Under the pieces are notes generated by a model. It ran no database searches. It was given only the letters and a program-made list of their open reading frames with translations, and was not told where the DNA came from. Shown here one piece after another: positions 39,301 to 60,775 of a DNA stretch of 64,000 nt. Each line of letters starts with the position of its first letter. Within the stretch, counting starts at the first letter, position 1. The translations under genes were made by a program, and so were the position numbers. The stretch lies in NCBI GenBank assembly GCA_014728075.1, contig WJMG01000027.1, positions 696-64,695 of the forward strand, given 5' to 3'. The DNA is from Candidatus Omnitrophota bacterium. Its GTDB lineage: Bacteria; Omnitrophota; Gorgyraeia; Tantalellales; Tantalellaceae.

Positions 39301-39440
39301 TTAGACTCGAGACCAGGGGCTAGAGGTTTCGTTGAGGTAGAGGCAGAGAAAAAGGATGCGGGATAAAATATATGTATTTGCTGTCGGCCTTCGGGAGGCT
39401 CGAGGCTGGAGGCAAATGGCTAAAGGTGCGTCACGCGCGA
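39301..39440 (+). repeat. Promoter-proximal modular repeat element, copy 1
   Basis: It shares ctcgag..ggaggtttcgttgaggta(gagg)n..gagaaaaaggatg.gggataaaatatatgtatttgctgtcg.ccttc with 56047-56180 (reverse complement) and 59366-59445. It carries an extra gggaggctcgaggctggagg module. Confidence 0.7.
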
Positions 39441-39519
39441 GGCGATGGGGCCGGGTACCGCCTTGTTCCCGTACCCGGTACAAACGCATAAGTCCGCGTT
39501 GCCTCTCCAGCCCGGAGAT

Positions 39520-39558
39520 AAAAAAACCCCGGTTCGGCGGACCGAACCGGGGTTTTTG
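39520..39558. terminator. Bidirectional rho-independent terminator
   Basis: CCCCGGTTCGG, loop cgga, CCGAACCGGGG, flanked by A7 and T5. Confidence 0.7.
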
Positions 39559-39577
39559 TGGTTCACTTTAACGGAAC

Positions 39578-41038
39578 TTAGAAGCTGAGAGCAACGGTAC
39601 CTACGATATCTGTAGCGACATCATCGGTCCCATTGTTGTTCTCAAGAGCGTCACCCGGGAAGAACCATGCGGACAGAAGTCCGAAGGTAACATCCTCGGT
39701 GTAGTCCCATGTAAGAGAAAGATCGACCTCGTCACCGACATTCTTATCGGTGTTCTGGTTCGAATAATCCTCAGCGAGCCAGAAGTGACCATAGAGAGCC
39801 TCGAAAGTAAGGCTGTCGGTCGGCTCAAGGGTCAGCCTGCCGAGCACCTGGTGCTGGTTGGTGTGCGAAGGCGTGCTGGCGGTGGCTGTCCTGTAGAACA
39901 CATTCTGGAATTCCCTTATAGCGGTGTCGAACTTACCCCTGTACATGGAATCCCATCCGTTGTAATCGCCCGTGGTAACGGCGTTCCTGTTTCCGACATC
40001 TTCCTGACCGGAATAGAAGATGTACTCGGCGCTGACAACAGGCCTCCAGGCGAAATCGTCCTGCCAGTAGCGGCATTCCACCATGGCGTCGATCGCCCAG
40101 GCGCTTCTGTCGCGTTCGCTCTGCTGCCCGGCTATACCGAGGAAATCACCGGTCTGGTAAGCACCTTCAAGAGCTATGGTCCAGTCTTCGATCGGGTCGA
40201 AGCTGCCCCTGAGGCCGAAGGTGTGCACATCGTCGTTGTAAACATCGTTAACAGTGGAAGTGTTCATCACGGTGTTGGCAACGGTGGACGGGTTCCTGTC
40301 CTGCTTGAAGAACCAGTAAGCTTCGGCTTCTCCGTTGTAGTTGTCGAACACATAGCCTACATTCAGGCCCCACAGGTTGATGTCGTCGTCGGCCCTTCTC
40401 GCGTTCTCGCTTATCTTGGCGAAAACACCGTCGATGGTCCACGGATCGTAGTCGAGAGTCGCCCTTATGGCGTCAAAGGACTTGACCGCGGTGTACTCCA
40501 TCGGCCAGAAACCGCCGGAAGGATCCTGCATGTTGGCTCCGATGATGAAGCCTTTACCGAACCACAGGTCCTGGCGACCTATCCTGAGTGTGAGCGGAGA
40601 GTAAAGGAACTCTTTCAGCTCAACATAAGCGAGGTCCACGAGAACGCTGTAAGCGTCGGTCTGGCCCGGGGTAGCGCCCCTGGCGACAACGACATCGTTG
40701 ATGTCGTCGATCATGCCGAGCTCGCCCGCTGCCTGGCCGGTCTGGAGCCCGTCGCCCCACACCCTCTGGTTCACGAGACGGACAACACCGGATACATTAT
40801 CGGTGAGATCGGCGTCTATCTGAACCTCGGCGGTGCTGGTGAGGTAGCTCGCCCAGTTGTTGGTCTGGAGACCGGTGTTCGAGTTATCGGCGTCACTGGC
40901 GTCCAGATCGTAGTTGTTCCTGAGAAAACTGCGAAGAGTGATGTCTCCGCTTACCTTAACGCTCTGGGTTTCCGCGTAAGCTATGGCGGAAACGGCAAAT
41001 ACGAGCGCTATAACGCAAAGTACTTTCATTAATTTCAT
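39578..41038 (-). CDS. Outer-membrane beta-barrel protein (porin-like)
   Basis: It has a signal peptide, a C-terminal ...VALSF ending in Phe, and an alternating amphipathic pattern. Confidence 0.6.
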   Translation of the reverse strand: MKLMKVLCVIALVFAVSAIAYAETQSVKVSGDITLRSFLRNNYDLDASDADNSNTGLQTNNWASYLTSTAEVQIDADLTDNVSGVVRLVNQRVWGDGLQTGQAAGELGMIDDINDVVVARGATPGQTDAYSVLVDLAYVELKEFLYSPLTLRIGRQDLWFGKGFIIGANMQDPSGGFWPMEYTAVKSFDAIRATLDYDPWTIDGVFAKISENARRADDDINLWGLNVGYVFDNYNGEAEAYWFFKQDRNPSTVANTVMNTSTVNDVYNDDVHTFGLRGSFDPIEDWTIALEGAYQTGDFLGIAGQQSERDRSAWAIDAMVECRYWQDDFAWRPVVSAEYIFYSGQEDVGNRNAVTTGDYNGWDSMYRGKFDTAIREFQNVFYRTATASTPSHTNQHQVLGRLTLEPTDSLTFEALYGHFWLAEDYSNQNTDKNVGDEVDLSLTWDYTEDVTFGLLSAWFFPGDALENNNGTDDVATDIVGTVALSF

Positions 41039-41408
41039 TGCTTTACCTCCTTAAAAGGTATTAAGCGCCGGCCTTTCCGGCCGGCAATATCTCAAAAGAA
41101 CGGGATACTACCCGTCCTAGTTTTCGCTATATAAGTATCGCCCATTGTAGATTTGACAATCTCTGGCAGATAATAAGTTAACTTTTATTTCATCCCCCCT
41201 TTCTTTGCCGGATTCGAGATCGCCGCAGGCGGTACATGCTGGTTTTTTAAAAGAACTTTAAAGGTATATGTACTTATACAGAAAATCATGTATTTCTACA
41301 TTTGTGAAAGTATAGCACGATACAACGCCCAGTCAAGATTAAAACAACAAATTCTTTTTTGTTAAAATAAAACAAAGTTAGATGTTTTCGCGCCTGTCAC
41401 ACGCCGTT

Positions 41409-42059
41409 CTACTTCCGGACACGAAAAACAATGGTTTCGGAGTTACGAAGGATGGCTTCTTTTATATCGGAGTTTTGTGTGAGGCTTCCCAGTGTTCTAT
41501 CGATAAGCTCGTGGCTCATCAGGTCGGCGGGTGAATGAGAATCGGTATTGAGCACCATCGGCGCTCCCGCCTCACTTGCGATATCAAAGACATGAGCGTT
41601 CCCGCGGCAATGCCCTTCGCGGGTGGTTATTTCCAGATATACCGTTTCTTCAGCGGCCAGAGCCGCCTCTTTCCGCGTTATATCCCCGGGATGGGCCAGT
41701 ATGTCAACGCCTGCCCTTATGGCTGCTTCATTAGTCCCGGGGACCACCGGTTCTACAGGAGACTCTCCGTGGCCTATGACTATCCCCGCCCCCCTGGCGC
41801 GGGCGTGCTTGACCATCTCGGGGTACACCTCGACGGGGACATGAGTGATCTCAACACCGGGAATGACGAATATATCCCAGTATCGGTTAAGGACCTCGGA
41901 AACCCGGGCCAGGGCTTCGATCGTAGCATCGATATTAGAATGGTCTACATGGTCGGTAAGAGCTATGGCCTTATATCCGGCGACTACAGCCCTCCTTACC
42001 AGTTCGGCGGGAAGAAGGCAACCGTCGCTCAATAAGGTATGTGTATGAAGGTCTATCAT
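41409..42059 (-). CDS. PHP-domain metal-dependent phosphoesterase
   Basis: Begins MIDLHTHTLLSDG. Confidence 0.75.
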   Translation of the reverse strand: MIDLHTHTLLSDGCLLPAELVRRAVVAGYKAIALTDHVDHSNIDATIEALARVSEVLNRYWDIFVIPGVEITHVPVEVYPEMVKHARARGAGIVIGHGESPVEPVVPGTNEAAIRAGVDILAHPGDITRKEAALAAEETVYLEITTREGHCRGNAHVFDIASEAGAPMVLNTDSHSPADLMSHELIDRTLGSLTQNSDIKEAILRNSETIVFRVRK

Positions 42060-42293
42060 TGTACTCTCCCTTTGTATTCACCTGGAATAAAGCGGTATCA
42101 GGCTAGAGGCTATGATAAAACAGGCTTTAGACCGGTGCCTGTTGCCTCCGGCCTGAACTGAATTTTACCATGGAGATGCCCGGCGGGCAAGGCCCGCCAC
42201 CAGGTAAAGGCGCGAGAGGGATGACGCGACAACATCTTTTATCTCTGCCTGCACCTTCCGTTCTGTCGCCAGCGTACGGGAACACACCGGAGG

Positions 42294-42920
42294 CTATGCG
42301 CCGTTCGCCGCACCCTTTTTATTTCGGACCTCTTCAAGCCACCTGTTAAGCTCCACCGAGAACCTGGCGAGGTTAAGTTTTTCCGATAAAGAATAATTTC
42401 GTAATTTTTCCAGGAAAAGACGGTCCCTTTCTATAGCGGAATCGTTCACTATCTCTTCAAGGGGTTCGACGGCATTGAGCATATCATCCTTGCCTTCCCA
42501 CCCCGTATTCACCGGAAAACCCTCTTGGGCCAGAGGAGGATCCCATGTCCCGTCTATGAACAACCACTTACCGCCGATCTTCGCTTTAAGAGCAAGGTGG
42601 TAAGAAACAGGTATTTTCCCGGCATATCGCCTGACATCTTCCGGATAAGCCACATCAAGGTCTTTCCACAGGAACGGATAAGTGCAGTATCTGACCGGAA
42701 AGTCCATCCGTTCGAAGAACATACCCATAAGATAATGCTTGGGAACGCAAAATCCCCTGTTCAAAACAAGCATCTCCCGGGGGCCTTTTTCCAGTCTGAA
42801 CAGTTCCGGGATAACAGCGAAGGGTATGTCGCGCACCTTTTCGAATATGTTCACAGCGGCCTTAACGCTTGTCAGCCCTCTCTTCCATTCGTAAAATTTC
42901 TCGATCACAATATCGCTCAT
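42294..42920 (-). CDS. Hypothetical protein, transglutaminase-like cysteine-protease fold?
   Basis: 208 aa with a weak C...H...D pattern. Confidence 0.35.
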   Translation of the reverse strand: MSDIVIEKFYEWKRGLTSVKAAVNIFEKVRDIPFAVIPELFRLEKGPREMLVLNRGFCVPKHYLMGMFFERMDFPVRYCTYPFLWKDLDVAYPEDVRRYAGKIPVSYHLALKAKIGGKWLFIDGTWDPPLAQEGFPVNTGWEGKDDMLNAVEPLEEIVNDSAIERDRLFLEKLRNYSLSEKLNLARFSVELNRWLEEVRNKKGAANGA

Positions 42921-42926
42921 GTTGAC

Positions 42927-44057
42927 TTATAGTTTACCTGACAACTTCAGAATATGCCATTTTAACGCTATTTTGAACGGGACTTCGCCCTCCACCATGA
43001 GGGCTTTGAGGTCTTTTTCGCCCGGAGCCTTTATAAGCGTCTCGACCCTGCCTATCCTGTAAGCAAGTTTTATAAGGTCCCTGGATATGATACCCGCCCG
43101 CATATGCTTCCCGAAAGCCCTTTTCCAGGAAAACTCGTATTTCTTCATGGCATGACCGTCGAACCTTCCTTCCTCCAGGGCCCGGAGCGCGGTCAGGGCC
43201 GCCAGCTGGCCGGCCTTAAGAGCGTAATAAATACCTTCTCCCGTTCCCGCGTATACCTGGCCTGCCGCGCTTCCGCACACCATTATCCCGGGCGCGTAAG
43301 TTCTCGCTATCGGCCCGCCGACCGGCACCGTCCCGGCATAGAAGCTTATTTCGCGGGCTCCGGCCGCGTATCTGTCGGATAGAGCGCGGAACCTTTCGGA
43401 GATGTCGGTTTTTTTCGCGAAAGAACCGTACCCTACATTAGCGAGTGTGGCGCTTTTAGGGAATATCCAGAAATAGCCTTCGTTCCTATCGTCGAAAACA
43501 TACTTGAACCTCGACTCGTCGAGGCCGTCAAATTCGTATATCCCCCCCACGCAAGGCGCGAGCAAAGGGGTATTTTTCACGAGCCCCAATTGTTTCTGTA
43601 ACCGAAAATCACACCCGTTGGCTATGATCGCTATCCTTGAGCGTTCGGTCCCTTTGTTCGTAGTGAGCCGGCAATGGCCCCCGGCGACCTCTATCCCTGC
43701 GCATTCGTTCTGCATCTCAACCTCTCCCGATACTTCTCTACAGAGCCATTTCTCGAACCCGGGCCGGTCAAGCTCTATAAAATCCGTACTCAGGTCCCTT
43801 TGAGTATCGCCGAAAATCACCCTGTGGCCGGATACCCGTTTACTAACGAAAGGAAAGTCAGCGGGCCCGAAAAGTTCAGTGAAACCGGATGCCCGGATGG
43901 CTTCACCGCAACGCAGGGGAAACCCGATCTCTTTTTTTCTGTCCAGAACGAGAAAACGGGCACCGCTTTTCTTTAATGTCCGGGCAGCCATCAACCCGGC
44001 AGGCCCGGCGCCTATGATAATGACATCGTACATAGCAGATTTAGTTTTAGGACCCAT
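42927..44057 (-). CDS. Geranylgeranyl reductase-family FAD-dependent oxidoreductase
   Basis: It has a Rossmann fold (GAGPAG). Confidence 0.7.
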   Translation of the reverse strand: MGPKTKSAMYDVIIIGAGPAGLMAARTLKKSGARFLVLDRKKEIGFPLRCGEAIRASGFTELFGPADFPFVSKRVSGHRVIFGDTQRDLSTDFIELDRPGFEKWLCREVSGEVEMQNECAGIEVAGGHCRLTTNKGTERSRIAIIANGCDFRLQKQLGLVKNTPLLAPCVGGIYEFDGLDESRFKYVFDDRNEGYFWIFPKSATLANVGYGSFAKKTDISERFRALSDRYAAGAREISFYAGTVPVGGPIARTYAPGIMVCGSAAGQVYAGTGEGIYYALKAGQLAALTALRALEEGRFDGHAMKKYEFSWKRAFGKHMRAGIISRDLIKLAYRIGRVETLIKAPGEKDLKALMVEGEVPFKIALKWHILKLSGKL

Positions 44058-44131
44058 GATCCGATGTTCGCGTCAGCGTATCAGCCTGAAATACGGACCG
44101 CGTCCAAAGAGCTTTACGCCGCGCTTCCACT

Positions 44132-44416
44132 TTATCCCACAAGTTCCATCACCATTCTTTCGACGAGCGTGCTCCAGAAATGCATACCGCCGGTAAAGGA
44201 AAAAACCAATATAACGGCGACCAGGATAACTATTATCAGGACCAGCCCTACGCCCCTGATCGCTTTCTTCTCCTCAACGGCCTCTTGCCTGTCATTTCCC
44301 TCTCCGGCACAGGTTCTCTCGCATTCCTCCCTGCGTTCAAGCGGACTCCCGCAAAAAAGGCATACACCCCGGCTGTCATCGAATTCCCTCGCGCATTTAG
44401 CGCATTTTTTCGCCAT
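44132..44416 (-). CDS. Zinc-ribbon + C-terminal TM small protein
   Basis: Start MAKKCAKC (ATG 44416) has a GGAGG RBS. It has CxxC...CxxC and a hydrophobic helix. Confidence 0.45.
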   Translation of the reverse strand: MAKKCAKCAREFDDSRGVCLFCGSPLERREECERTCAGEGNDRQEAVEEKKAIRGVGLVLIIVILVAVILVFSFTGGMHFWSTLVERMVMELVG

Positions 44417-44424
44417 ACCCCTCC

Positions 44425-45291
44425 TCAGATAAGCCCGTTTATGATACCGGCCATTATCAGGTCGTTCTCCGTAACCCCTCTCGAAGCGTGGGTAGTGAGC
44501 TTTATATCCACAAGCCCCCATCCGAGGGTCAGTGTAGGATGATGTCCTTCCTCTTCAGCTATCGCCGACAGGACATCCACGAAAAATTTGGCTTCGGAAA
44601 AATCATCGAAGGTGATCCGCTTCTCTATACTTTTGCCTTCAACGAGCTCCCATCCCGCATATTCCGGAAGCCTTTTCCTGACTTCCTCCTCTTCCAGAGC
44701 CGGTTCCCCGACCTCGCATGGCCTGCATTTGCCCGTATGCCCCTCCCTGTTTCGGGGGGAAGGGGACGAGAGCACCTCTTTTATTTTTTCAACGGCCGCT
44801 TCGTAATCCGGCGGGTCCGTTATCTCTTCCACCACCTGTATATACCGGATATTATTTTTATCGTCCAGTACGATCACAGAACGGGCCAACAGCCCCAGCT
44901 CTTTGATGAAGAGGCCGTAGTTAAAGCCGAAAGAAGATGTCCTGTGATCCGAAAGCACCCGGACACGCTCTATGCCGTTCATATCACAGAACCTTTTCTG
45001 GGCAAAGGGCAGGTCCATGCTCACTCCGGTAACCGTTACATCCGAAGAAAGCCCTGTTGCCCTTTTATTGAATTCTTTTACCTGAAGGTCACAAACGGGA
45101 GTATCGATCGACGGAAAAGAAGTGACCACTCTCACCTTCCCCCGGAGGTCTTTCAGTCCTTTCTCTTCCAGCCCGTCGTCAACGACCTTAAAATCCGGGG
45201 CGATATCACCTTCACTTAATTTTCGCCCCGCAAGGGTAAGCTGTTCTCCTTTAAAAGCGACTTTCCTTTCCATGGTTCCTCCTTTTATCAA
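44425..45291 (-). CDS. Thiol peroxidase (Tpx-type peroxiredoxin) fused to pterin-4a-carbinolamine dehydratase (PCD/DCoH) domain
   Basis: The N-terminus has SIDTPVC. The C-terminal ~95 aa has the EEGHHPTL...W...TH PCD signature. Confidence 0.7.
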   Translation of the reverse strand: MIKGGTMERKVAFKGEQLTLAGRKLSEGDIAPDFKVVDDGLEEKGLKDLRGKVRVVTSFPSIDTPVCDLQVKEFNKRATGLSSDVTVTGVSMDLPFAQKRFCDMNGIERVRVLSDHRTSSFGFNYGLFIKELGLLARSVIVLDDKNNIRYIQVVEEITDPPDYEAAVEKIKEVLSSPSPRNREGHTGKCRPCEVGEPALEEEEVRKRLPEYAGWELVEGKSIEKRITFDDFSEAKFFVDVLSAIAEEEGHHPTLTLGWGLVDIKLTTHASRGVTENDLIMAGIINGLI

Positions 45292-45442
45292 GAGCGCGGT
45301 TGATCGTTCGAAGTTCGCCGGGAATATAAGCGGACCGTGTCTTCCGGAAGCGGTCCCGTGTTATTCGGGCAGAACGGTAATTACGGGGTGGCCGGGTCCA
45401 CGGTTCCCCGTGAACACTGAACGCCGGACCGCAAAACATGAA

Positions 45443-46696
45443 CTACGGACTTTTTTCTTCATTCCAGATAAAGACCTTATCGTTCCTCCTCACCCTGAAA
45501 GGCACCTTGACCCCTACCGCGGTCCCCTGGGCAACCTCCCTCACCGGAGAGTGTTCTATCTCCATATCCTCCAGCGTAAAAAATCCCGCCGGCGTGGACC
45601 GTCCCGTTATCAGGATCTTCTGTCCCGCGTATAAGGGGGCCGCCTTCACGAGAATTTCGGCGACACTTATCTTTTTGTAGTATTTGACGACCTCCCCTAC
45701 ATATATCTTTTCGTACTTCTTACTGATCTCCCCCCCAAGGTCTTCCGGACGCCCTAAGTAGAACCCACTGGAAAATCCCCGGTTGAAAGCGCCCCTTAGT
45801 TTCTCGAAGATACCGTGCTTCAGCTTATCGTCAAGGCCGCCTCTGAAATAAGCGTCTATAGCTTCTTTATAAGCGGAAGTGACCACGGCGCAGTATTCCG
45901 GGGACCTCATCCTTCCCTCGATCTTAAAAGCGTCTACCCCCGCATCTATGAGCCTGTCGATGAACATTACCGTACAGAGGTCCCTCGGGCTCAATATATA
46001 GTCCTCTCCGAGCACATACTCACATTCGGGCCGTCCTTCTTCCGGGATATCCGTTATCCTGTATTTTCGCCTGCAGGGTTGCAGGCAATCTCCCCTGTTA
46101 GCTGACCTGTTAAAGGAAAGCTGAGAAAGAAAACACCTGCCGGAAATACTCACGCACATAGCCCCGTGGACAAAGACCTCTATCTCGCAATCTATGCCGG
46201 CTTTTCGTATTTTGCTCTTTATCGCGGCTATCTCAGAGAGACCGCACTCGCGGGCAAGAACGATCCTTTTAACTCCGGCCGAGGAATAGTATCTGACCGC
46301 TTCGAAATTGGAAACACTGGCCTGTGTCGAAAGGTGGACCTCCATGCCCAGTTCAAGGGCCATGGACATCGCGGCCATGTCCCATGCTATGACCCCGTTA
46401 ACTCCGGCCGAGGAAGCCGCTTCAAGCAGTCTTTTTATCTTACCGGTCTCACGGTCATATATAGTAATGTTCAGGGCAAGATAGCCTTTTTTCTTTCTGG
46501 CCCGGAGAAATTCCATCACTTTCCCCATCTCAAGCGCGTCGAAATTGGACGCAGAATGACGCATGTTCATACCCTTTACACCGAAATAAACGGCATCACA
46601 CCCCGCCTCGACCGAACTGGTCAGCGATGGCCAGTCCCCTGCGGGAGAAAGGAGCTCGGGCTTCTTTTTATAAACTGTATCTTTCTTTTTCCTCAT
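45443..46696 (-). CDS. Peptidase U32 family protein
   Basis: 417 aa with a U32 Cys-rich core (GAMC...SGRC). Confidence 0.75.
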   Translation of the reverse strand: MRKKKDTVYKKKPELLSPAGDWPSLTSSVEAGCDAVYFGVKGMNMRHSASNFDALEMGKVMEFLRARKKKGYLALNITIYDRETGKIKRLLEAASSAGVNGVIAWDMAAMSMALELGMEVHLSTQASVSNFEAVRYYSSAGVKRIVLARECGLSEIAAIKSKIRKAGIDCEIEVFVHGAMCVSISGRCFLSQLSFNRSANRGDCLQPCRRKYRITDIPEEGRPECEYVLGEDYILSPRDLCTVMFIDRLIDAGVDAFKIEGRMRSPEYCAVVTSAYKEAIDAYFRGGLDDKLKHGIFEKLRGAFNRGFSSGFYLGRPEDLGGEISKKYEKIYVGEVVKYYKKISVAEILVKAAPLYAGQKILITGRSTPAGFFTLEDMEIEHSPVREVAQGTAVGVKVPFRVRRNDKVFIWNEEKSP

Positions 46697-52953: not shown

Positions 52954-53032
52954 AAGAACCCCTTATTTTAGCGTCAGGCGTCAAGCCAAGACCGCGCCGA
53001 AGCGTTTACGGTCACGGGTGAACGCTTCGTCG

Positions 53033-53440
53033 CTATTCGTTTACCCTGAACGAAGTAACGGTTATGGTATCCCCCCTGTCGATAGTATCTTTCATTTTCG
53101 ATCTAAGCCATTCTCTTGCGGCGTTCCGCGCGGCGGGGGTCAACCCGGCAAAACCTATAAAGTCGGTTATTATTCCCGGGGTGACCAGGAGAATTCCACT
53201 GACAAGTATTACCACACCGTCGAAAAGGGCATCCGCCGGCATGCGGCCCGCGTTAACTTCCCGCTGTATGGCTGAAAGCACACGCACCCCCTGTTGCCGG
53301 GCCATGCTCGCCCCTACTATGCCGGTGACCACTACTATTAAAAGCGTATTGAAAACACCTATGATCTGGCCCACCCTGATCAGGATACTAAGCTCCACGA
53401 AAGGCACCAGTATAAATATCAAAAGCAGATATGCGAACAT
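53033..53440 (-). CDS. fxsA: FxsA cytoplasmic membrane protein
   Basis: It has PGIITDFIG, cf. E. coli PGFFTDFLG (recalled from memory). Confidence 0.65.
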   Translation of the reverse strand: MFAYLLLIFILVPFVELSILIRVGQIIGVFNTLLIVVVTGIVGASMARQQGVRVLSAIQREVNAGRMPADALFDGVVILVSGILLVTPGIITDFIGFAGLTPAARNAAREWLRSKMKDTIDRGDTITVTSFRVNE

Positions 53441-53514
53441 ATGGTCTCCTTACAAGTTCAGCTAGAGGTCCGGGTCCGATAACACTTCGGACCGTAATGT
53501 TTCCAGGCCCGGAC

Positions 53515-53994
53515 CTAGTCCTGTTTCACATAAGCCCTGATGATCTTGCGGTCTTCTACCGGCCTATCCATAGCGCCGGTCTCGGAATTCTCGATGGCCT
53601 CTACCGTTCCATACCCAGAAACGACCTCACCGAAAATGGTATGGTTCATGTTCAGCCAGGGAGCCGGCGCGGTCGTTATGAAAAACTGGCTCCCGTTGGT
53701 CCCGGGGCCGGCATTGGCCATAGCCAGTATACCGGGCCTGTCGAACCCTACCTCACCGGTCACTTCGTCCTCGAAAGGCTCTCCCCAGAGCGATTCTCCG
53801 CCCCTGCCCGTCCCGGTCGGGTCACCTGCCTGTATCATGAAACCCTTTATCACCCTGTGAAAAATAACACCGTTATAATACCCTTTTTCCGCAAGACCGG
53901 CGAAACTCTCACAGGCTTTCGGAGCCACATCTTTCATAAGGCTCAGTTCTATATCACCCTTATCTGTACTCAGCACAACATTCACGCGTTTCAT
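53515..53994 (-). CDS. ppiB: Peptidyl-prolyl cis-trans isomerase, cyclophilin type
   Basis: It has FHRVIKGFMIQAGDP. Confidence 0.9.
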   Translation of the reverse strand: MKRVNVVLSTDKGDIELSLMKDVAPKACESFAGLAEKGYYNGVIFHRVIKGFMIQAGDPTGTGRGGESLWGEPFEDEVTGEVGFDRPGILAMANAGPGTNGSQFFITTAPAPWLNMNHTIFGEVVSGYGTVEAIENSETGAMDRPVEDRKIIRAYVKQD

Positions 53995-54068
53995 GCCCCG
54001 TCCTCCCTTTCCATGTAATTATACCGATATATGCGGTAAATTAAAATCAAAAGTTACCCGGCGGACCT

Positions 54069-55961
54069 TCATCGCGAGTCCGCGATCCTGGAAAGCGCCT
54101 TTTCATGCTCTTTCATCAATTCTTCCAGTTCATCATAAAGACCGTCCGTCCTCCCGGCGAGTTCGGAAAGTTCCCTGGACAGTTCCGATATAGACACGGC
54201 GTCACCTGATTCCGAAGCCTCGACCAGCAAATCGTTCAGCTCATTCCGCCGTTCTTCCGACCTCTCTACAGCTTTTTCGAGAACAGATATCTTTTTCTCG
54301 AGGGGCTTCAACAGTTTTGCCCGGAGCTCCCTGGCTTCGGCCCTGCGGCGCCTCGCCTCTTTAGGGGACTTCTCTCGGGCGTCCTTCTCCCGCTTCAGGC
54401 CCTTGTCCGCTTTCAATGAGCCCCCATCGGCATCGTCCCAGCCTTCCTGCTCCAGAAATTCATCGTAACGGCCCGGAAAGACCACAACCCCCTTTTCCTT
54501 GAAAGCTATTATCTTTGTAGCGACCTGCCGGAGAAAATACTCGTCGTGCGTAACGATAAGAGCGGCCCCGTCGAACCCGGAAACGGCGTCTATCATGGAT
54601 TGACAAGCCTGCATGTCAAGATGGTGTGTCGGTTCATCGAGAAGCAGGAGGTTCGAGGGAGCGAGCAGGAGTTTCCCGAGCATGAGCCTGCATTTTTCCC
54701 CTCCGGAAAGAACACCGACCTTCTTTAGCGCCGTATTACCCGAGAACATCATCGCCCCGCATATGTTCCTGACCTCTGTGCGGGATACGCCACGGGACGC
54801 CGCCGCCAGCTCTTCCTCAACGGACCTGGAATCGTCCAGCGCGGCTGTGTTTGACTGTTCGAAATAAGCCTTGATCACACCGTGATGCTCTTTTATCTGC
54901 CCATTTACCGGGGAAAGCGCTCCCGCGAGCAGGCGCATAAGCGTGGTCTTGCCCTTACCGTTCTTCCCCGCTATGCATATCTTGTCGCTTTTATCCACGG
55001 AAAAGTTCAACCCTTCTATGACATACGGCGAAGCTCCCCCGTAAGAGAATGTCAAACCCGATACCTTCATGAGGGTCTTCGCGCCGAACGGGCTGGCGTT
55101 AAAGGAAAAAGACAGGTCACGGACCTTATCCAGCTTGCTCCTTTTCTGCATCTTCCCAAGGCTTTTTATGTGGGATTGTATCCCTCTGGCGTGACGGGCT
55201 TTTGCCCGAAAGCGGTTTATATGCTCTCTCATCTGTTCCCGTTTTTTTTCCTCGTTAAGGCGATGCTTTTCGTAGACCTCCTCGTCTCTGGCTATCTGCG
55301 CGTAATAATCCCGCGTTTTCCCCCTCATTTTGCGCATCCTCCGGCGGTGTATCCCCAGAATATGATCAACGACCGAATCCATGAAACCACGGTCGTGGCT
55401 GATGACCATGAGTTCTCCTCTCCAGGTTTTCAGGAAAGATTCAAGCCAGCGTATTGATATGATGTCTAGAAAGTTGGTCGGCTCATCGAGAAGCAGAAGG
55501 TCCGGCGCCGACACAAGGACTTTCGCCAGAGCCAGCCTGACCTGGAATCCTCCGGAAAAGCCTTTTATCGGCAGGCGCATATCCTCCTCCGCAAAACCGA
55601 GGCCGGAAAGTATCTTTTCAGCTTTCCAGGTATCGTTTTTTTCGTGTACGGGAAGCCCACGGCAGGCTTCTTCCAGCACCGTAACACACTTAAAACTGAG
55701 CTGCTGGTCGAGATACCCTATCCTGTATCCCTTAGGCACATTGATCGTACCGGTATCGGGGCTTTCCCGACCGGTTAGCATCCTGAACAGAGTGGTCTTG
55801 CCGTGGCCGTTCCTTCCCACAAGCCCGATATGCTCACCGGGGCCGATATTGAGATCGGCGGACTCGAAAAGGACCTGTTCTCCGTAGGTTTTAGAAAGAT
55901 TATGACCTGATATCATTATGGGAGTATTGTAGCTATTATAGGACACATTGTCTAGCGGCAA
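54069..55961 (-). CDS. ABC-F family ATPase (Uup/EttA-like)
   Basis: It has two ABC cassettes and a C-terminal coiled-coil, with no TM domain. Confidence 0.8.
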   Translation of the reverse strand: MPLDNVSYNSYNTPIMISGHNLSKTYGEQVLFESADLNIGPGEHIGLVGRNGHGKTTLFRMLTGRESPDTGTINVPKGYRIGYLDQQLSFKCVTVLEEACRGLPVHEKNDTWKAEKILSGLGFAEEDMRLPIKGFSGGFQVRLALAKVLVSAPDLLLLDEPTNFLDIISIRWLESFLKTWRGELMVISHDRGFMDSVVDHILGIHRRRMRKMRGKTRDYYAQIARDEEVYEKHRLNEEKKREQMREHINRFRAKARHARGIQSHIKSLGKMQKRSKLDKVRDLSFSFNASPFGAKTLMKVSGLTFSYGGASPYVIEGLNFSVDKSDKICIAGKNGKGKTTLMRLLAGALSPVNGQIKEHHGVIKAYFEQSNTAALDDSRSVEEELAAASRGVSRTEVRNICGAMMFSGNTALKKVGVLSGGEKCRLMLGKLLLAPSNLLLLDEPTHHLDMQACQSMIDAVSGFDGAALIVTHDEYFLRQVATKIIAFKEKGVVVFPGRYDEFLEQEGWDDADGGSLKADKGLKREKDAREKSPKEARRRRAEARELRAKLLKPLEKKISVLEKAVERSEERRNELNDLLVEASESGDAVSISELSRELSELAGRTDGLYDELEELMKEHEKALSRIADSR

Positions 55962-56046
55962 GAACGCGCCGCGCCTTTAGCCTTTTGCCGCTATCCTAAA
56001 ATCCTTTCCTACGGCCTGAGAGCTTTGAGCTATGAGCCGATACGCA

Positions 56047-56180
56047 GAAGGTCGACAGCAAATACATATATTTTATCCCTCATCCTTCATCCTTTTTCTC
56101 TACCTCTACCTATTGTACCTGTACCTCTCCCTGCACCTCAACGAAACCTCCAGCCCCGGGCCTCCGGTCTCGAGCCTATA
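56047..56180 (-). repeat. Promoter-proximal modular repeat element, copy 2 (expanded hexamer tract)
   Basis: It is the reverse complement of copy 1, with six TNNACC-type hexamers (tctacc tctacc ..tgtacc tgtacc tctccc tgcacc) versus 3-4 in other copies. Confidence 0.7.
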
Positions 56181-56204
56181 TACCTGTACCCTGAATCGCG
56201 GTTA

Positions 56205-56213
56205 TGCTATAAT
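56205..56213 (+). promoter_or_regulatory. Extended -10 (TGcTATAAT), 7 nt before the gpmA ATG
   Basis: TGnTATAAT places the TSS at or next to the start codon. Confidence 0.4.
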
Positions 56214-56220
56214 AATAACC

Positions 56221-56973
56221 ATGCTGAAACTCGTCCTTCTCCGCCACGGTGAAAGTGAATGGAACCTCGAGAACAGGTTCACCGGCTGGACGGATGTCGA
56301 CCTTTCCCCTAAGGGGCTAAAAGAAGCCCGTGAAGCGGGCAGGCTGCTCAAGAAGAACGGATTCTCTTTCGACATTGCCTTCACCTCCCTGCTTAAAAGG
56401 GCCATACGAACACTCTGGATAGTACTTGATGAAATGGACCTGATGTGGATACCGGTAGAAAGATGCTGGCGCCTTAACGAAAGGCACTACGGGGCCCTCC
56501 AGGGCCTTAACAAACAGCAAACTGCCGCGAAATTCGGAAGCGAACAGGTCCATCTCTGGCGTCGGGGATACGATACCCCTCCGCCGGCCCTTGATAAGAC
56601 AGACAAGAGGTTTCCCGGGAACGACCCCAGATACAAAAATATACCGGAAGACCTGCTTCCCCTTACAGAATGCCTCAAGGATACGGTTGAGCGCTTTATT
56701 CCGTACTGGCAGAACACTATAGAACAGGAACTCTTAAAAAACAGGCACGCTCTCATAGCGGCCCACGGCAACAGTCTGAGAGCGCTCGTCAAATACCTGG
56801 ACAATATATCTGATGACGAAATAGCGGAACTTAATATCCCCACGGGCATACCTCTCGTGTATGAGCTTGACGAAAAACTCTCGCCGTTAAAACATTATTA
56901 TTTAGGCGACGAGGAAAAAATAAAAAAAGCCGCGGAAAAAGTGGCCCGTCAGGATAAGTTGATAAAGGAATGA
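56221..56973 (+). CDS. gpmA: 2,3-bisphosphoglycerate-dependent phosphoglycerate mutase
   Basis: Starts at [15 protein letters not shown] (RHGESxWN). The track ORF's 63-aa N-terminal extension lies in the repeat element and is rejected. Confidence 0.9.
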
Positions 56974-57094
56974 AGCCCATAGCGGTGTTCTGCTCACGGG
57001 CGAGCCGGTCAACCGGACTGAAACATTGATACAATAAACCTTGCTGGTGCCGCCGTGTTCATGTGCGCCAGCACTCTACCGCAAGGAGGATACG

Positions 57095-58147
57095 ATGTCT
57101 ATCGATATACAGAAATTACTCGGAGAAGAAACATCTTATTTGCTGCAGCACGAATGCTCAACCATACCAAAAAGATATCTCCACCTGCCGGGACCTGACC
57201 ACATATCGAATATCTTCGGTATCTCAGACCGTCCGGAAAAGGTCATAAAGAGCCTTAAAAGGGTGTTCTCCCACGGAAGACTGAAAAACACCGGTTATCT
57301 TTCGATACTGCCTGTAGACCAGGGCATTGAGCACTCCGCCGGCGCCTCTTTCGCTCCGGAGCCTATATATTTCGACCCTGAGAACATAATTAAACTGGCT
57401 ATAGAGGGAGGCTGCAACGCCGTTGCTTCTACGCTGGGAGTCCTGGGGATGATATCGGAAAAATACGCTTCAAAGATCCCTTTCATATTGAAGATCAACC
57501 ATAATGAAATGCTCTCGTACCCTAATACCTACGACCAGAGGCTTTTCGCCTCCGTCGAACAGGCTTATAACATGGGCGCCGCCGGCGTCGGCGCCACAAT
57601 TTACTTCGGATCCGCCGAATCCAGGCGCCAGATAGAGGAAATTTCCGAAGCCTTCCTGATGGCCCACGAACTCGGGCTTTTTACCGTACTCTGGTGTTAC
57701 CTGAGGAACGAGGGATTCAAAAAGGACGGTGTTGATTATCACGCTTCCGCGGACTTGACCGGGCAGGCAAACCATCTGGGCGTAACAATAGAAGCCGATA
57801 TAATAAAACAGAAACTGCCCGTGAATAACGGTGGCTATACAGCTGTCGGATTCGGCAAGACCAGCTCGCTCGTATACGAAAAGCTGACCACGGACCATCC
57901 GATAGACCTTACCAGATACCAGGTGGCTAATTGTTACATGGGGCGCATAGGCCTTATCAATTCGGGGGGACCTTCCGGCGAGAACGACCTGCAACAGGCC
58001 GTACGGACCGCGGTCGTAAACAAACGCGCCGGGGGAACGGGGCTTATCTCAGGAAGGAAGGCCTTCCAGAAATCCATGAAGGACGGCATAGAGATACTTA
58101 ACGCCATCCAGGATGTTTTTCTGTCGAAGGAAGTGACTATAGCATAG
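57095..58147 (+). CDS. fbaB: Class I fructose-bisphosphate aldolase
   Basis: From ATG 57095 (RBS AGGAGGA), my recollection of E. coli FbaB aligns closely (LLQHxCxTIP, [10 protein letters not shown]). Confidence 0.85.
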
Positions 58148-58157
58148 GGTTTAGGCA

Positions 58158-58194
58158 AAGAAAGAGCGGAGACCTTTCTCCGCTCTTTCTTTAT
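58158..58194 (+). terminator. Rho-independent terminator after fbaB
   Basis: AGAGCGGAGA, loop cctt, TCTCCGCTCT, then TT.T run. Confidence 0.7.
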
Positions 58195-58217
58195 ACGCTA
58201 CGCGCTATACCCTGTAC

Positions 58218-58556
58218 CTATTCCTTCTCCCTCTCCTCTTTGCACTTAACGCAGTATTTAGCGTAGGGTAACGCCTTCAGCCTTTCGATCTTTATTTCTT
58301 CACCGCAATCGAGACATCGTCCGTAGGAACCGTCCCCTATCCTCTGAAGGGCTTCCTCTACCTCCCGTATCTCGACCTCCTCGATAAGATCCTCCTGCTC
58401 AAGCACATCGGCCTCTTCCCTGGCGCTGAGCGCGTCCTCCGAGTCCTGCGGCATCTCCTGCCTTATTTCCTTACCGAGGATCTGCATTTGCCTCCCCAGA
58501 TCATCGTGTATCTTTTTTAGTTTATTTTCCAGCCGCTTAAGTGTCTTTTCGTCCAT
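58218..58556 (-). CDS. DksA/TraR-family C4 zinc-finger protein
   Basis: It has CLDCGEEI...CVKC. Start at MDEK has a GGAAAGGAG RBS. Confidence 0.65.
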   Translation of the reverse strand: MDEKTLKRLENKLKKIHDDLGRQMQILGKEIRQEMPQDSEDALSAREEADVLEQEDLIEEVEIREVEEALQRIGDGSYGRCLDCGEEIKIERLKALPYAKYCVKCKEEREKE

Positions 58557-58575
58557 ATTACTCCTTTCCCCGGAA

Positions 58576-58935
58576 TTACCAGTCATGGCCTTTATAGGAA
58601 CAGGACGCGTCCTCTTCCATACTCCCCAGGTAATAAGTTCCGCCGGACGGGCAGTAAGGCGCTTTTCTTATATACCCGGTTACCAGGTCGCTCCAGTCGG
58701 GACGGGACCCCCTTCCCTCTCCTTTATCCATAGCCCACATCTTTTTTGCGTCGTCCAGCCTCTTAAGGTTGAAGAGACACACCTTTCTTCTGGCCCTTCT
58801 CCCTGCATCTATGTATTCATGCCCGGCGATGGCCAGGATAAAAGTGATGATCGCCAGGACCACCATCATCTCAAGCAGTGTCAAGCCGGACGACGGCGAA
58901 AAGAACCCTTTGGTCTTATAAAACGGATTTTTCAT
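58576..58935 (-). CDS. Prepilin-type N-terminal cleavage/methylation domain protein
   Basis: GLTLLEMMVVLAII. Confidence 0.65.
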   Translation of the reverse strand: MKNPFYKTKGFFSPSSGLTLLEMMVVLAIITFILAIAGHEYIDAGRRARRKVCLFNLKRLDDAKKMWAMDKGEGRGSRPDWSDLVTGYIRKAPYCPSGGTYYLGSMEEDASCSYKGHDW

Positions 58936-58989
58936 CTATCAAGGATAAATATATCTCACGAAAGGCGCGGAGGCAAGACCTGTCCATCA

Positions 58990-59269
58990 TTAAAGCGCTC
59001 TGAGGACCTCTTCCCTTGCTTCCAGAAAGCTGAAAAGGACCGAACCGTTCATGCGTCTCACGGGAGGAAGTTCCAGTCTTCCCGGAAAATCCTCTTCTTT
59101 ACCGGCAGCGGAAGATCCAAGGAAACCGGGGCTCCGGCCCAGCGCCTCCTGGACCCCCCGCGCCAAAGGAACTTCATATAAAGCTGCCTCGAGGGAAGAT
59201 GCCCCGACAGGCGAAAGAAAAACACACAAAAGCGCCGCGAAAATTATAATTCTCCGGAAAGGATGCATT
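58990..59269 (-). CDS. Hypothetical secreted protein (93 aa)
   Basis: Start MHPFRR has a GAGGAG RBS, plus a signal peptide. The track's longer N-terminus lies in repeat copy 3. Confidence 0.4.
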
Positions 59270-59296
59270 TTTTCTCCTCTTCTGTTTCTCTCCACC

Positions 59297-59445
59297 CTGT
59301 TGTTCATTGTAACTCCATGGGGGGAAATAGACAAGAGAATAGCGTACAGCGTGTAGCGCATATAGCCTCGAGGCCGGAGGCCCGGGACTGGAGGTTTCGT
59401 TGAGGTACAGGTAGAGGTAGAGAAAAATGATGCAGGATAAAATAT
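59297..59445 (+). repeat. Promoter-proximal modular repeat element, copy 3 (with embedded TTGTCT-17-TACAAT promoter)
   Basis: 59297-59380 is nearly identical to 60675-60758, and 59381-59445 matches copies 1 and 2. Confidence 0.7.
59307..59335 (-). promoter_or_regulatory. sigma70-type promoter within repeat copy 3
   Basis: TTGTCT, a 17-nt spacer and TACAAT on the minus strand. Confidence 0.5.
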
Positions 59446-59557
59446 ATGTGGTTCTATTATGCTTTCTATGATAACAGGAACTTCCTCGACCCGACCCTTT
59501 TTCCCTTATCCTTAATTGTTTTACAGGGCTTCCCCCGGCACATTAACTTGCCGCTGA

Positions 59558-60670
59558 TCATCCCCGAGGCAAGCTGAACGAAAAAGTACTTCCTTTGCCG
59601 TATTCGGACTCAACTTCTATCTCCCCGCCGTGTTCTCTCACTATCTTCCTGGAGATGGAAAGTCCCAGTCCCGTCCCTTCGGGCCTCGGCCCTTTTTCGG
59701 AATAGAACCTGGAAAATTTCTCGAAAAGCTTTTTTCTGTCCTCTTTTCTTATCCCCACGCCGGTATCCTGTACCGAAACGGTTATCTTCATCCCGTCAAA
59801 AGAGGTTGAAACCCTTACGCTGCCCTCTAAAGTGAATTTTATCGCATTCGTAAGCAGATTGGTGACGACGAGGGCTATCATGTTGCGGTCAAACCCGGCC
59901 TCGGGGATATTTTCATCAAGCTCTTTCTCCAGGGAGATCCCCTTGTCAACGGACATGGGCTCAAGCCTTGAAGCTACCTCATTCACCACGCGGTTGATAT
60001 CGTTGGGACGGATATCAAAAACCTGTTTACCGGACTCCATCACCTGCAGGCTCAGGACATCGTTGACAAGCATCATCATGTTATCGGCGCTCGAGCGTAT
60101 GCGCTCGAGTATCCTGAGGTCCGCTCCCTTCAGTTCATTCCCGGCGGACGATGCCAGAAGTTTCGAGCCTTCGTTTATTACCATAAGCGGAGTTTTGAGC
60201 TCATGCGAGACCATGGAAACGAAATCCGACTTCATCTTCATCGTATGCCGGAGCGCCTTTTCCGCCTTCTTGCGGGTGGTTATGTCCTGGAAGACCTCAA
60301 GCACCGCTTTCCTGCCCATATACATCATACCTGTATGGCTGACAAGGAAGGTCCTGCCTCCAAGCGCCCCGCTTATCTCAATGGTCCTGGTCTCGCCTGC
60401 ACGGACGCCCTCCTTTAACGGACACAACCTGCACTGTTCCTTATTATCCTTGTAAACCTCCCAGCACTTCTTTCCGACCGCGCTTTCGCCGAAAAGCGCG
60501 ATGAATTTTTCATTCATAAAAAGGATATTACCGTACTCGTCGACTATCTCCATGCCGAAAGGGATGGTCTTCAGGAGCGTCTGGCATAACTCGTTTACAC
60601 GGCTGACCTCCTCCGCGTCGCGTCTGCAGGCGTTAAGTTCCTGCCTTATTTCTCTGTCTTTGTTCTCCAT
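59558..60670 (-). CDS. Cytoplasmic PAS-domain sensor histidine kinase (orphan)
   Basis: It has H-box SHELKTP plus N, G1, F and G2 boxes. Its PAS carries C-x10-C-x2-C. Confidence 0.8.
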   Translation of the reverse strand: MENKDREIRQELNACRRDAEEVSRVNELCQTLLKTIPFGMEIVDEYGNILFMNEKFIALFGESAVGKKCWEVYKDNKEQCRLCPLKEGVRAGETRTIEISGALGGRTFLVSHTGMMYMGRKAVLEVFQDITTRKKAEKALRHTMKMKSDFVSMVSHELKTPLMVINEGSKLLASSAGNELKGADLRILERIRSSADNMMMLVNDVLSLQVMESGKQVFDIRPNDINRVVNEVASRLEPMSVDKGISLEKELDENIPEAGFDRNMIALVVTNLLTNAIKFTLEGSVRVSTSFDGMKITVSVQDTGVGIRKEDRKKLFEKFSRFYSEKGPRPEGTGLGLSISRKIVREHGGEIEVESEYGKGSTFSFSLPRG

Positions 60671-60674
60671 GAGG

Positions 60675-60775
60675 CTATTGTAACTCTAAGGGCGGGAATA
60701 GACAAGATAATAGCGTACAGCGTGTAGCGTATATAGCCTCGAGGCCGGAGGCTCGGGGCTGGAGGCCCGGGCTGG
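60675..60775 (+). repeat. Promoter-proximal repeat element, copy 4 (5' module only)
   Basis: It shares attgtaactc.a.gggg.gg.aatagacaaga.aatagcgtacagcgtgtagcg.atatagcctcgaggccggaggc with copy 3. Confidence 0.7.
60677..60705 (-). promoter_or_regulatory. sigma70-type promoter within repeat copy 4; histidine kinase predicted leaderless
   Basis: TTGTCT, a 17-nt spacer and TACAAT, with only 6 nt between the -10 and the ATG. Confidence 0.45.

Follow-up and report, generated by a model that had tools for sequence, protein, structure and literature searches.

What is the short repeated sequence that stands upstream of four genes in an uncultured Omnitrophota bacterium, and what does it do for these genes? 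The question is raised by a 64-kb window (positions 696 to 64,695 of contig WJMG01000027.1, assembly GCA_014728075.1) of a metagenome-assembled genome (MAG) of Candidatus Omnitrophota bacterium, and this one window of one MAG was the sequence view for the whole analysis. The window carries four copies of the repeat, called c1 to c4 here, next to the genes for a DUF4870 membrane protein (c1), for gpmA (c2), for a 92-amino-acid (aa) protein (c3) and for a PAS histidine kinase (c4). A preliminary description had proposed a mobile, promoter-bearing cassette resembling a miniature inverted-repeat transposable element (MITE), or else the operator array of a regulon, tuned by the number of hexamers in it. 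We found that the four copies are genuine relatives and that one of their modules is a duplicated block with a predicted promoter. The best explanation, to which we give an even chance of being right, is that they are paralogous promoter-upstream DNA, built by slippage and duplicated locally, in which one module, module A, carried a promoter to two genes.

The repeat family was confirmed by several searches, because BLASTN and nhmmer E values as well as exact words compared with shuffled sequences placed the similarity far past chance. c3 and c4 have a stretch of 89 nt in common with 91% identity (repeat search; E = 6e-26 by BLASTN against the window), c2 and c3 one of 76 nt with 85.5% (BLASTN against the window, E = 1e-16) and c1 and c2 one of 65 nt with 84.6% (E = 5e-13, likewise). 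An independent repeat search recovered blocks of 40 nt at 85% and 41 nt at 93% between c1 and c3 (BLASTN E = 7e-14) and found c2 in inverted repeats of 30 to 63 nt with the other copies (79 to 95%). When the window was searched with profiles (nhmmer), the four copies gave E values of 1e-14 to 1e-29 and everything else stayed at E ≥ 0.03. The 16-mer GAGGTTTCGTTGAGGT and the 15-mer GGATAAAATATATGT of module B are each present exactly in three copies, compared with means of 0.59 (≤3 mismatches allowed) and 0.14 (≤2 mismatches allowed) in shuffles, and a 21-mer of module A is present exactly twice, compared with 0.00 (≤3 mismatches allowed). The four locations named in the preliminary description were thus borne out by reading, repeat search, BLASTN and profiles, with refined limits, and modules A and B were recognized as it had drawn them.

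The order of the blocks, taken from multiple and pairwise alignments, is a mosaic: A-core-B in c3, A-core in c4, A'-core-B-tail-D in c2 and core-B-tail-core-D in c1. c3 (59306-59449, plus strand) consists of module A (59306-59363), core (59364-59394) and module B (59391-59449), and c4 (60677-60775, plus strand) consists of module A (60677-60734) and a core with additional heptamer and 14-mer units (60735-60775), without module B. c2 (55965-56207, minus strand) contains a degenerate remnant of module A (56177-56207), the core (56147-56176), a module B (56064-56150) with an expanded hexamer tract and one additional ATGAAGG heptamer, the tail (56047-56063) and, behind an unrelated spacer, block D (55965-55997). 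In c1 (39303-39435, plus strand), a short core (39303-39325, CTCGAG at 39306) leads into module B (39323-39375) and the tail (39376-39392), downstream of which part of the core is repeated (GGCTCGAGGCTGGAGGC, 39397-39413) before block D (GGCAAATGGCTAAAGGTGCG, 39411-39435). The tail, ATTTGCTGTCGRCCTTC, is common to c1 and c2 with 95% identity over 41 nt. Block D, GGCAAAWGGCTAAAGGYGCG, is likewise found in both of these copies.

Every module is itself an imperfect tandem array of 6- to 7-nt units, as seen with Tandem Repeats Finder, which reported period 6 at 59402-59422, period 7 at 39395-39413, 56075-56094 and 60710-60733 and period 14 at 60738-60775. Module A is present in c3 and c4 and decayed in c2; it consists of TTGTCT-17-TACAAT in reverse complement and, behind it, the heptamers ATAGCGT ACAGCGT GTAGCGT, or (NNAGCGT)x3. 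The core, GCCTCGAGGCCGGAGGC, is the sole block common to all four copies and is a run of YYSGRGG heptamers (CTCGAGG CCGGAGG CCCGGGA CTGGAGG). CTCGAG belongs to one of these units and is invariant in five of five occurrences, c1 having two; the core palindrome noticed earlier therefore holds for this hexamer in every copy, but the 10-bp form GCCTCGAGGC is perfect in c3 and c4 only. Module B (c1 to c3) runs from GAGGTTTCGTT through GGTRSA hexamers, GAGAAAAAGG and ATGARGG heptamers to GGATAAAATATATGT. Its hexamer tract indeed varies, but the numbers first given (3 to 4 in c1 and c3, 6 in the gpmA copy) were wrong; in the GAGGTA register there are about 2.5 units in c1, 3.5 in c3 and about 7 in c2, and the tract is imperfect (e.g., GGTGCA GGGAGA GGTACA GGTACA ATA GGTAGA GGTAGA). 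The arrays in the copies are short, with 2 to 7 units. In pairwise alignments, the copies are separated by indels of 6, 7, 18+3 and 27 nt, which are near whole units, and since the copies differ mainly by such unit-sized indels, slippage is indicated. Block boundaries fall within arrays; c4, for example, departs from c3 past CTGGAGG. Of 25 short-period arrays in the window as a whole, 14 fall within its intergenic part, which makes up 17% (p = 1e-5); without the four copies, this is still true of 9 out of 20 (p = 0.003).

Module A of c3 and c4 holds a predicted promoter, as the preliminary description had claimed. The promoter scan placed TTGTCT-17-TACAAT inside module A of c3 (59306-59334, minus strand), ahead of the gene for the 92-aa protein (58990-59268, minus strand), and inside module A of c4 (60677-60705, minus strand), 6 nt ahead of the ATG of the gene for the 370-aa PAS-HisKA-HATPase histidine kinase (59558-60670, minus strand), which would be a leaderless-type start. 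The NCBI annotation (locus tags GF408_*) uses the same start, and its product MBD3379343.1 is exactly these 370 aa. By its -35 and -10 hexamers, its 17-nt spacing and its correct placement ahead of the gene, the motif qualifies as a putative sigma70-type promoter. The leader of the 92-aa protein gene, counted from the predicted promoter in c3, would be about 38 nt long and has a GAGGAG Shine-Dalgarno sequence; the product, first described as a secreted 93-aa protein, is 92 aa long, has no Pfam family and has a signal-peptide-like N terminus. Between c3 and c4, the promoter hexamers have 0 mismatches in 12 positions, the 17-nt spacer has 4 in 17 and the 60 nt upstream have 4 in 60, and the similarity ends precisely at the gene-proximal edge of the -10 hexamer. 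Since the hexamers are identical, the spacer has diverged and the homology ends at the -10 box, the pattern fits a functional promoter that was copied. The existence of a duplicating, promoter-bearing block, proposed beforehand, is thus supported by the 89 nt common to c3 and c4. These two copies flank the kinase gene, as had been stated; they are in direct orientation, with c4 at the 5' end of the gene and c3 at the 3' end.

The other two copies do not contain the promoter of the adjacent gene in this way. c1 is bordered on one side by a porin-like gene (Pfam Alginate_exp) with its intrinsic terminator and on the other by the promoter of the gene for the 117-aa DUF4870 membrane protein (38841-39194, minus strand; MBD3379322.1). 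That predicted sigma70-type promoter, TTGACT-16-TAAAAT (39260-39287, minus strand), is outside the repeat, 15 nt from the edge of c1, so the claim that each copy adjoins the -35 box does not hold for c1, which stops short by these 15 nt. c2 occupies the whole divergent intergenic region between an ABC-F gene and gpmA (56221-56973, plus strand; 250 aa, MBD3379338.1). A predicted extended -10 promoter of gpmA, TGcTATAAT (56205-56213, plus strand), was read from the sequence 7 nt ahead of the ATG, again a leaderless-type start; it was not listed by the promoter scan and its -35 is poor. The predicted promoter of the ABC-F gene, TAGACA-17-TACAAT (55926-55954, minus strand), adjoins block D of c2 and is followed 9 nt on by the ATG at 55916. 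The predicted promoters TTGACT-16-TAAAAT, TTGTCT-17-TACAAT (twice) and TGcTATAAT all sit where they had been placed before. In the gpmA, PAS kinase and ABC-F genes (56205-56223, 60670-60682 and 55916-55931), the -10 box is 6 to 9 nt ahead of the start codon and there is no Shine-Dalgarno sequence, which suggests that this organism has mRNAs that are leaderless or nearly so; all three genes adjoin the repeats. Since stop codons are missing from the pyrimidine-rich strand of c2, an open reading frame (ORF) from 56032 reads in frame into gpmA (56032-56220); the resulting 63-residue extension of gpmA (..[23 protein letters not shown]..) is therefore spurious and an annotation trap.

All four copies have the same orientation to the downstream gene, as reported, but the chance of this is about 1 in 4 (p ~0.25) and not about 1 in 8: in c3 and c4 the promoter belongs to the repeat itself, which leaves only three independent cases. 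The statistic is weakened further by c2, which is upstream of two divergent genes, and by co-directional gene runs, which place any intergenic sequence "upstream of a promoter." The centre of CTCGAG is at about -49 (c2), -55.5 (c1), -70 (c3) and -70 (c4) relative to the predicted starts, with no fixed spacing or phasing. In four of four copies, the pyrimidine-rich strand with more C than G is the sense strand of the downstream gene; it contains 35 to 41% C and 12 to 23% G, with a GC skew of -0.29 to -0.49 over 70 to 137 nt.

How could such a family arise? In the explanation that we prefer, arrays would be lengthened and shortened by replication slippage, and blocks would be copied from one intergenic region to another in the neighbourhood, through ectopic recombination, gene conversion or template switching between short repeats, which would give the mosaic. 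The sigma70-type promoter of module A, a working one by prediction, would have travelled with the copied module, and the leaderless kinase gene and the gene for the 92-aa protein would be transcribed from the same copied promoter. gpmA would have kept a decayed remnant of module A and would use a different, extended -10 promoter, and the DUF4870 gene would use a promoter unrelated to the repeat. Core and module B would most likely be spacer or modulating upstream DNA and not a specific operator. The observations behind this explanation are the mosaic, the unit-sized indels, the promoter motifs with their pattern of conservation and the absence of hallmarks of mobile elements or RNA; from these we infer the copying mechanism, the activity of the promoters and the lack of a specific function of core and module B. 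The explanation is also favoured by the intergenic enrichment of short-period arrays in the window, and by relatives of like gene order that lack the sequence, two of which (L013 and L017) have unrelated repeats of similar style. Several points weigh against it. The GC skew of the copies opposes the regional background skew, and pure neutrality leaves this skew unexplained. In c3 and c4, conservation is higher in the 60 nt upstream of the -35 box than in the spacer of the promoter (Fisher p = 0.07), which suits a functional upstream site. All promoters are predictions, and the genome was read through a single 64-kb window, so that the copies may belong to a genome-wide family with defined ends. 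Finally, the clustering of the four copies within 21.5 kb of the 64 kb is not significant (range test, p ~0.11).

Searches beyond the window yielded no further member. The 19-mer CTRGAGGTTTCGTTGAGGT, common to c1 to c3, was used for exact-pattern scans of GTDB and JGI; it gave 2 matches in 185,579 GTDB species genomes and 10 in JGI metagenomes, all in unrelated, mostly coding sequence. Module A had 0 matches in IMG/VR. The 16-mer of module B had at least 120 there, but BLASTN of the copies against those 120 loci gave only 22 to 34 nt; the flanks that were read are unrelated sequence, open in one frame where checked (locus L038). BLASTN did not find the copies in plasmid (PLSDB) or phage records either.

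The nearest protein relatives are distant, the best non-self gpmA being 77% and the best non-self aldolase 84% identical, and comparison of gene order was possible with several loci. In L013, the order is gpmA, aldolase, a small gene, a DksA-like gene and another small gene; in L016 and L017, a PHP-domain gene, a 204-aa gene, a U32 peptidase gene, gpmA, the aldolase gene and a kinase gene; and in L018/L019 and L140, gpmA, the aldolase gene, the DksA-like gene and onward. The window repeat was absent from L013 to L019, L140 and L141 (BLASTN, word size 7), and nhmmer also gave nothing on L013 to L019. The regions upstream of gpmA in L019, L140 and L141 are plain and comprise 44 to 147 nt. Because it is absent from these syntenic relatives, the repeat does not represent regulatory DNA conserved with these genes. 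That the four genes were neighbours in an ancestor holds for gpmA and for the aldolase and DksA-like genes, and for the kinase gene in L017 only (43% identity); it is marginal for the 92-aa protein and fails for the DUF4870 protein, which has no similarity to the PF09685 protein of L019, and an ancestral neighbourhood of all four was rejected. The upstream neighbour of gpmA differs in every genome fetched. Among loci of gpmA or aldolase that are more remote, L015 has a weak Y1_Tnp match (9382-9828) directly beside gpmA on its upstream side, and L141 has DDE transposases (3322-4779) about 2.4 kb upstream of gpmA, past a two-component gene pair. On account of the differing neighbours and of these mobile-element genes, the junction upstream of gpmA seems to be rearrangement-prone.

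Could the copies nevertheless be MITE-like or other non-autonomous mobile elements with an outward promoter, in the style of Correia, BOX or REPIN elements, that were inserted upstream of the four genes? They are small, non-coding, intergenic and multi-copy, one module bears a promoter, and they are located where gene order departs from that of the relatives. However, an inverted-repeat search (seed 7, ≥10 nt) found no terminal inverted repeats at the ends of the four copies and their flanks, no flanking direct duplication that would define a target site was visible in the alignments, and the ends are ragged and differ among the copies. Stem-loop potential is missing as well: both strands of all copies fold no better than shuffles (z of -1.04 to +0.81), and a structured RNA was rejected on these values. 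Only four significant copies are present in 64 kb, with none elsewhere in the collections searched. Moreover, no transposase, RAYT, integrase or Y1 transposase was found among 57 Pfam-scanned ORFs of the window (ORF 5112-5477 was left out); the scans showed housekeeping genes, among them a mraZ/mraW/PBP/Mur-ligase cluster, greA, a UvrD-type helicase gene and a sugar ABC transporter. The MITE-like mobility proposed earlier was thus not borne out, and we consider mobile elements of any such style very unlikely. A gene product of the repeat itself is scarcely credible. The purine-rich strand would have to encode a small peptide (M-R/Q-D-K-I-Y-V...) or a small RNA directed away from the gene, and the ATG past GAGAAAAAGG does open ORFs starting with [10 protein letters not shown] in c1 and c2 or MQDKIYVV in c3. 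Yet they start alike (MRDKIYV...) because the DNA is shared; they comprise 71, 17 and 13 codons, are alike only within the shared DNA, are conserved in neither length nor frame and are broken by 7-nt indels. As for an RNA, the purine strand has no credible promoter, terminator, fold or Rfam match; Rfam 15 gave no match at E ≤ 1 in 55800-61400, and in the whole window only a c-di-GMP-I riboswitch elsewhere reached the gathering score.

Other readings give the shared DNA a regulatory function. The shared core might be bound by a transcription factor, perhaps the one that partners the orphan PAS kinase (binding to the CTCGAG palindrome plus GGAGGC-type heptamers), which would coregulate the DUF4870, gpmA, 92-aa protein and kinase genes. 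The core alone is present in all four copies with its CTCGAG invariant, all copies have one orientation to the gene, c3 and c4 mismatch in 6.7% of the upstream 60 nt compared with 24% of the promoter spacer, and the relative L013 has a repeat of its own upstream of gpmA and near the DksA-like gene cluster. But the distance from CTCGAG to the start varies as given above, orthologues of the gpmA and kinase genes in L013, L017, L019, L140 and L141 do not have the motif upstream, no regulator gene is adjacent to the copies, invariance of a 6-mer is statistically not unusual among copies that are 82 to 91% identical, and the DUF4870 and 92-aa proteins have no clear orthologues in the clusters of the relatives. 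The regulon operator of the preliminary description therefore stays a candidate, and we regard such a site as unlikely rather than far-fetched. The composition of the copies could instead be what matters: the C-rich, G-poor sense strand might, once transcribed, act as an insulator, a putative Rho-utilization (rut)-like tract or a platform for an RNA-binding protein that halts read-through ahead of the next promoter. This would agree with the strand bias, with the lack of secondary structure and with the position of c3 and c4 behind co-directional genes that have no intrinsic terminator. It does not agree with c1, which is already preceded by a strong intrinsic terminator, or with c2, which has no co-directional gene upstream, and a compositional function would not require 82 to 91% identity. 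Furthermore, other intergenic regions of the window are G-rich on the sense strand, so the C-rich tract is not the general terminator style of this genome, and an insulator appears distinctly improbable. Last, slippage of the hexamers might alter the spacing between a distal site and the promoter and thereby switch expression, making the copies contingency loci. The unit numbers of about 2.5, 3.5 and 7 and the whole-unit indels are evidence of slippage in the past, but the units are imperfect, and imperfection lowers slippage rates in simple sequence repeats. The tract is 50 to 100 nt upstream of the -35 box, neither between -35 and -10 nor within a coding region, the housekeeping gene gpmA is among the associated genes, and a difference from one paralogous copy to the next is not one from cell to cell. 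The phase variation suggested earlier, with the hexamer number as its switch, is hence highly unlikely.

None of these alternatives accounts for the copies as well as locally duplicated, slippage-built upstream DNA does, and repeats of this general kind, mosaics of short tandem units in intergenic DNA, are already known; the copied promoter is the most concrete feature of the present family. A search of the literature for intergenic repeats of Omnitrophota found none. Among long simple sequence repeats with units of 5 to 11 nt, GGGNATC is known from Xanthomonas and Nostoc (Rehm et al. 2015, PMC4692102) and TAACTGA from Beggiatoaceae (MacGregor 2015, PMC4679880, which also summarizes Mrazek et al. 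2007). The intergenic arrays of 6- to 9-nt units in Xanthomonas, Nostoc, Beggiatoaceae and others are ascribed to polymerase slippage and have no established function (PMC4692102, PMC4679880). Like these repeats, and like the STRR heptamers of cyanobacteria, the arrays of c1 to c4 are intergenic head-to-tail arrays of 6- to 7-nt units in variable number, and short-period arrays are over-represented in the non-coding DNA of the window. In contrast to them, the arrays of c1 to c4 are short and imperfect, and they join several unit types into blocks of 100 to 240 nt that are duplicated at 82 to 91% identity. Rehm et al. (PMC4692102) found the repeats between aligned ORFs, with a preference of the G-rich strand for the antisense position directly ahead of an ORF. 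The G-rich strand of c1 to c4 is also antisense upstream of the ORF, but unlike the G-quadruplex heptamers of that study, the copies have no elevated G4 propensity: in a 25-nt G4Hunter window only c4 reached 1.2, the copies were outside the top regions of the window, and a G-quadruplex reading was rejected. The TAACTGA repeats adjoin the start codon, whereas the arrays of c1 to c4 are upstream of the promoter.

Comparison with modular and mobile repeats gave a similar mixture. BOX elements of Streptococcus pneumoniae, boxA-(boxB)n-boxC, form stable stem-loops and number more than 100 per genome. They are modular and intergenic, vary in the number of an internal module and are found near promoters, as is the case for c1 to c4, but the latter have no fold and no sequence relation to BOX and were seen four times in the window; their hexamer and heptamer units vary in number, yet the outer modules differ among copies too. 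Enterobacterial bacterial interspersed mosaic elements (BIMEs) consist of repetitive extragenic palindromic (REP) units, which are imperfect palindromes, and the units of neisserial intergenic mosaic elements (NIMEs) are bounded by dRS3 inverted repeats. The likeness is in the mosaic combination of short motifs in extragenic DNA, together with a dRS3-like hairpin 125 nt from c4; the differences are that c1 to c4 are neither palindromic nor bounded by dRS3 and that no RAYT gene was seen in the window. Correia elements are bounded by terminal inverted repeats of 26 nt, show TA target duplications and occur in hundreds of copies, and some carry a promoter. Module A of c3 and c4 resembles them and other promoter-bearing MITEs as a short repeat that gives a promoter to the adjacent gene, but inverted repeats, TA duplications and a high copy number are neither present nor demonstrable for c1 to c4. 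An ordinary segmental duplication would suit c3 and c4, which stand on either side of one gene at a distance of 1.37 kb and have 89 nt in common, the promoter hexamers among them. However, the four loci extend over 21.5 kb, the subset of blocks in common varies among them, and one copy is inverted; thus, a single duplication does not explain the mosaic.

Some weaker fragments and further arrays were seen in the window. The GGTRNA unit of the module B type recurs, without significance by profile (E ~0.5), at 20087-20166, where GGTRNA and CCTGTA hexamers form an inverted pair (no strand assigned), GGTAGT GGTATA ... CCTGTT CCTGCA CCTGTA CCTTTA CCTGTT. The 109-nt gap that contains the pair is flanked by a Cys/Met-metabolism PLP (pyridoxal-phosphate) enzyme gene and by a PALP-family (pyridoxal-phosphate enzyme) gene and follows downstream of an Rrf2 regulator gene; in the transcript, the pair could form a long imperfect hairpin. 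A fragment of module A heptamers, TTTAGCGTACGGCGTGTAGCG (33497-33517, minus strand; profile E = 5), is at the stop codon of an HhH-GPD (base-excision repair family) gene, and its orientation to the next gene is opposite to that of c3 and c4. A module-A-like fragment, GGTATAGCGCGTAGCGTATAAAG (58190-58215, minus strand; E ~1), is between the convergent 3' ends of the aldolase and DksA-like genes, and a module-B-like fragment, GGTGCAGGCAGAGATAAAAGATG (42233-42256, minus strand; E = 2.5), is upstream of a PHP-domain gene in the orientation opposite to the main copies. Each of these four fragments (20.1, 33.5, 42.2 and 58.2 kb) alone is not significant by profile; two of the four have the opposite orientation and one is between convergent 3' ends. 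At the junction of an M48 peptidase gene and the HhH-GPD gene, the heptamer array TTAACGC CTGACGC TTCACGC CTTACGA (34166-34208) has a unit akin to the ACGCT heptamers of module A. Other arrays are an intergenic inverted one of AGACCAC heptamers opposite GTGGTCT units (12400-12470), three units of TTTCCTCCAC (6063-6092) and a CAGGTGTCGGGTATCAGGT / ACCTGATACCCGAGACCTG hairpin that precedes a terminator (6160-6240).

Directly past c4 (60783-60859), GACAATG is repeated 4.4 times (60783-60813) and AGTGTCAG 2.4 times (60841-60859), followed at 60899-60923 by the REP/dRS3-like hairpin mentioned above, ATTCCCGC-N9-GCGGGAAT (flanked by ..GAC). Related hairpins, TCATCCCCGC..GCGGGGAT and GATTCCCGC..GCGGGAATGAC, are upstream of gpmA in relatives (L016, 4822-4900; L017, 4096-4175), and together these hairpins may constitute another small family of palindromes, one that, in contrast to the main repeat, is common to several genomes. 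Beside c4, an 891-codon ORF (61281-63956, minus strand) has no Pfam family but charged low-complexity stretches and several hydrophobic segments; in a search of 5.8 billion proteins it had no homologue, itself included. The c-di-GMP-I riboswitch (23938-24027, plus strand; 70.6 bits, E = 8e-12) is just upstream of two tandem GH113-family glycoside hydrolase paralogues (24122-25222 and 25462-26568, plus strand) that are about 70% identical in DNA (repeat families D1 and D2).

Two of the relatives have upstream repeats of their own. L013, the closest gpmA relative (77%), contains a two-copy repeat of TTAAGA/TTAGGT-type units, then CTCAATCTCAACCT, then a GCTGCCGAAGGCAGC hairpin, with one copy upstream of gpmA and the other at the contig end past the DksA-like gene cluster (6165-6235 and 9620-9716). 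It is like the window repeat in position and style, without significant sequence similarity; homology to module B (CACCTCAA..AACCT; GAG(G/T)TTTCGT) was considered but was not significant by BLASTN or nhmmer and was treated as chance. L017 has 15 arrays of 5- to 11-nt units in 16 kb, and unit families such as GCACCAG, TAACGAGT and GTTTATCGT recur at several loci. Three of its genes (a 79-aa gene, a 204-aa gene and a class I aldolase gene) are also preceded, in one orientation, by a common cassette of about 170 nt that includes a GGGGAC..GTCCCC hairpin (1588-1900, minus strand; 2508-2740, minus strand; 5140-5392, plus strand). In two of the three, the 79-aa and aldolase genes, the cassette extends to the ribosome-binding site CAAGGAGGTC; it had no Rfam match and no significant global fold. 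Some Omnitrophota (this MAG, L017 and L013) might continually build genome-specific upstream cassettes from slippage arrays of 6- to 9-nt units and copy them, with promoters and even ribosome-binding sites, in fixed orientation to unrelated genes without a transposase; or the cassettes might be coevolving operator arrays of one lineage-specific regulon. We consider this wider proposal rather improbable.

If locally duplicated, slippage-built upstream DNA is the right explanation, the window offers a small and clear example, from an uncultured phylum, of a promoter captured by duplication, and one predicted promoter would serve both the kinase gene, which is leaderless, and the gene for the 92-aa signal-peptide protein, which has a leader. 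A repeated upstream sequence alone makes neither a regulon nor a mobile element. The copies are also of use for annotation, because the stop-free pyrimidine-rich strand yields a false N-terminal extension of gpmA by 63 codons. If such cassettes, with their promoters, were widespread in the full genome or in relatives, they would represent a transposase-free route of promoter dissemination.

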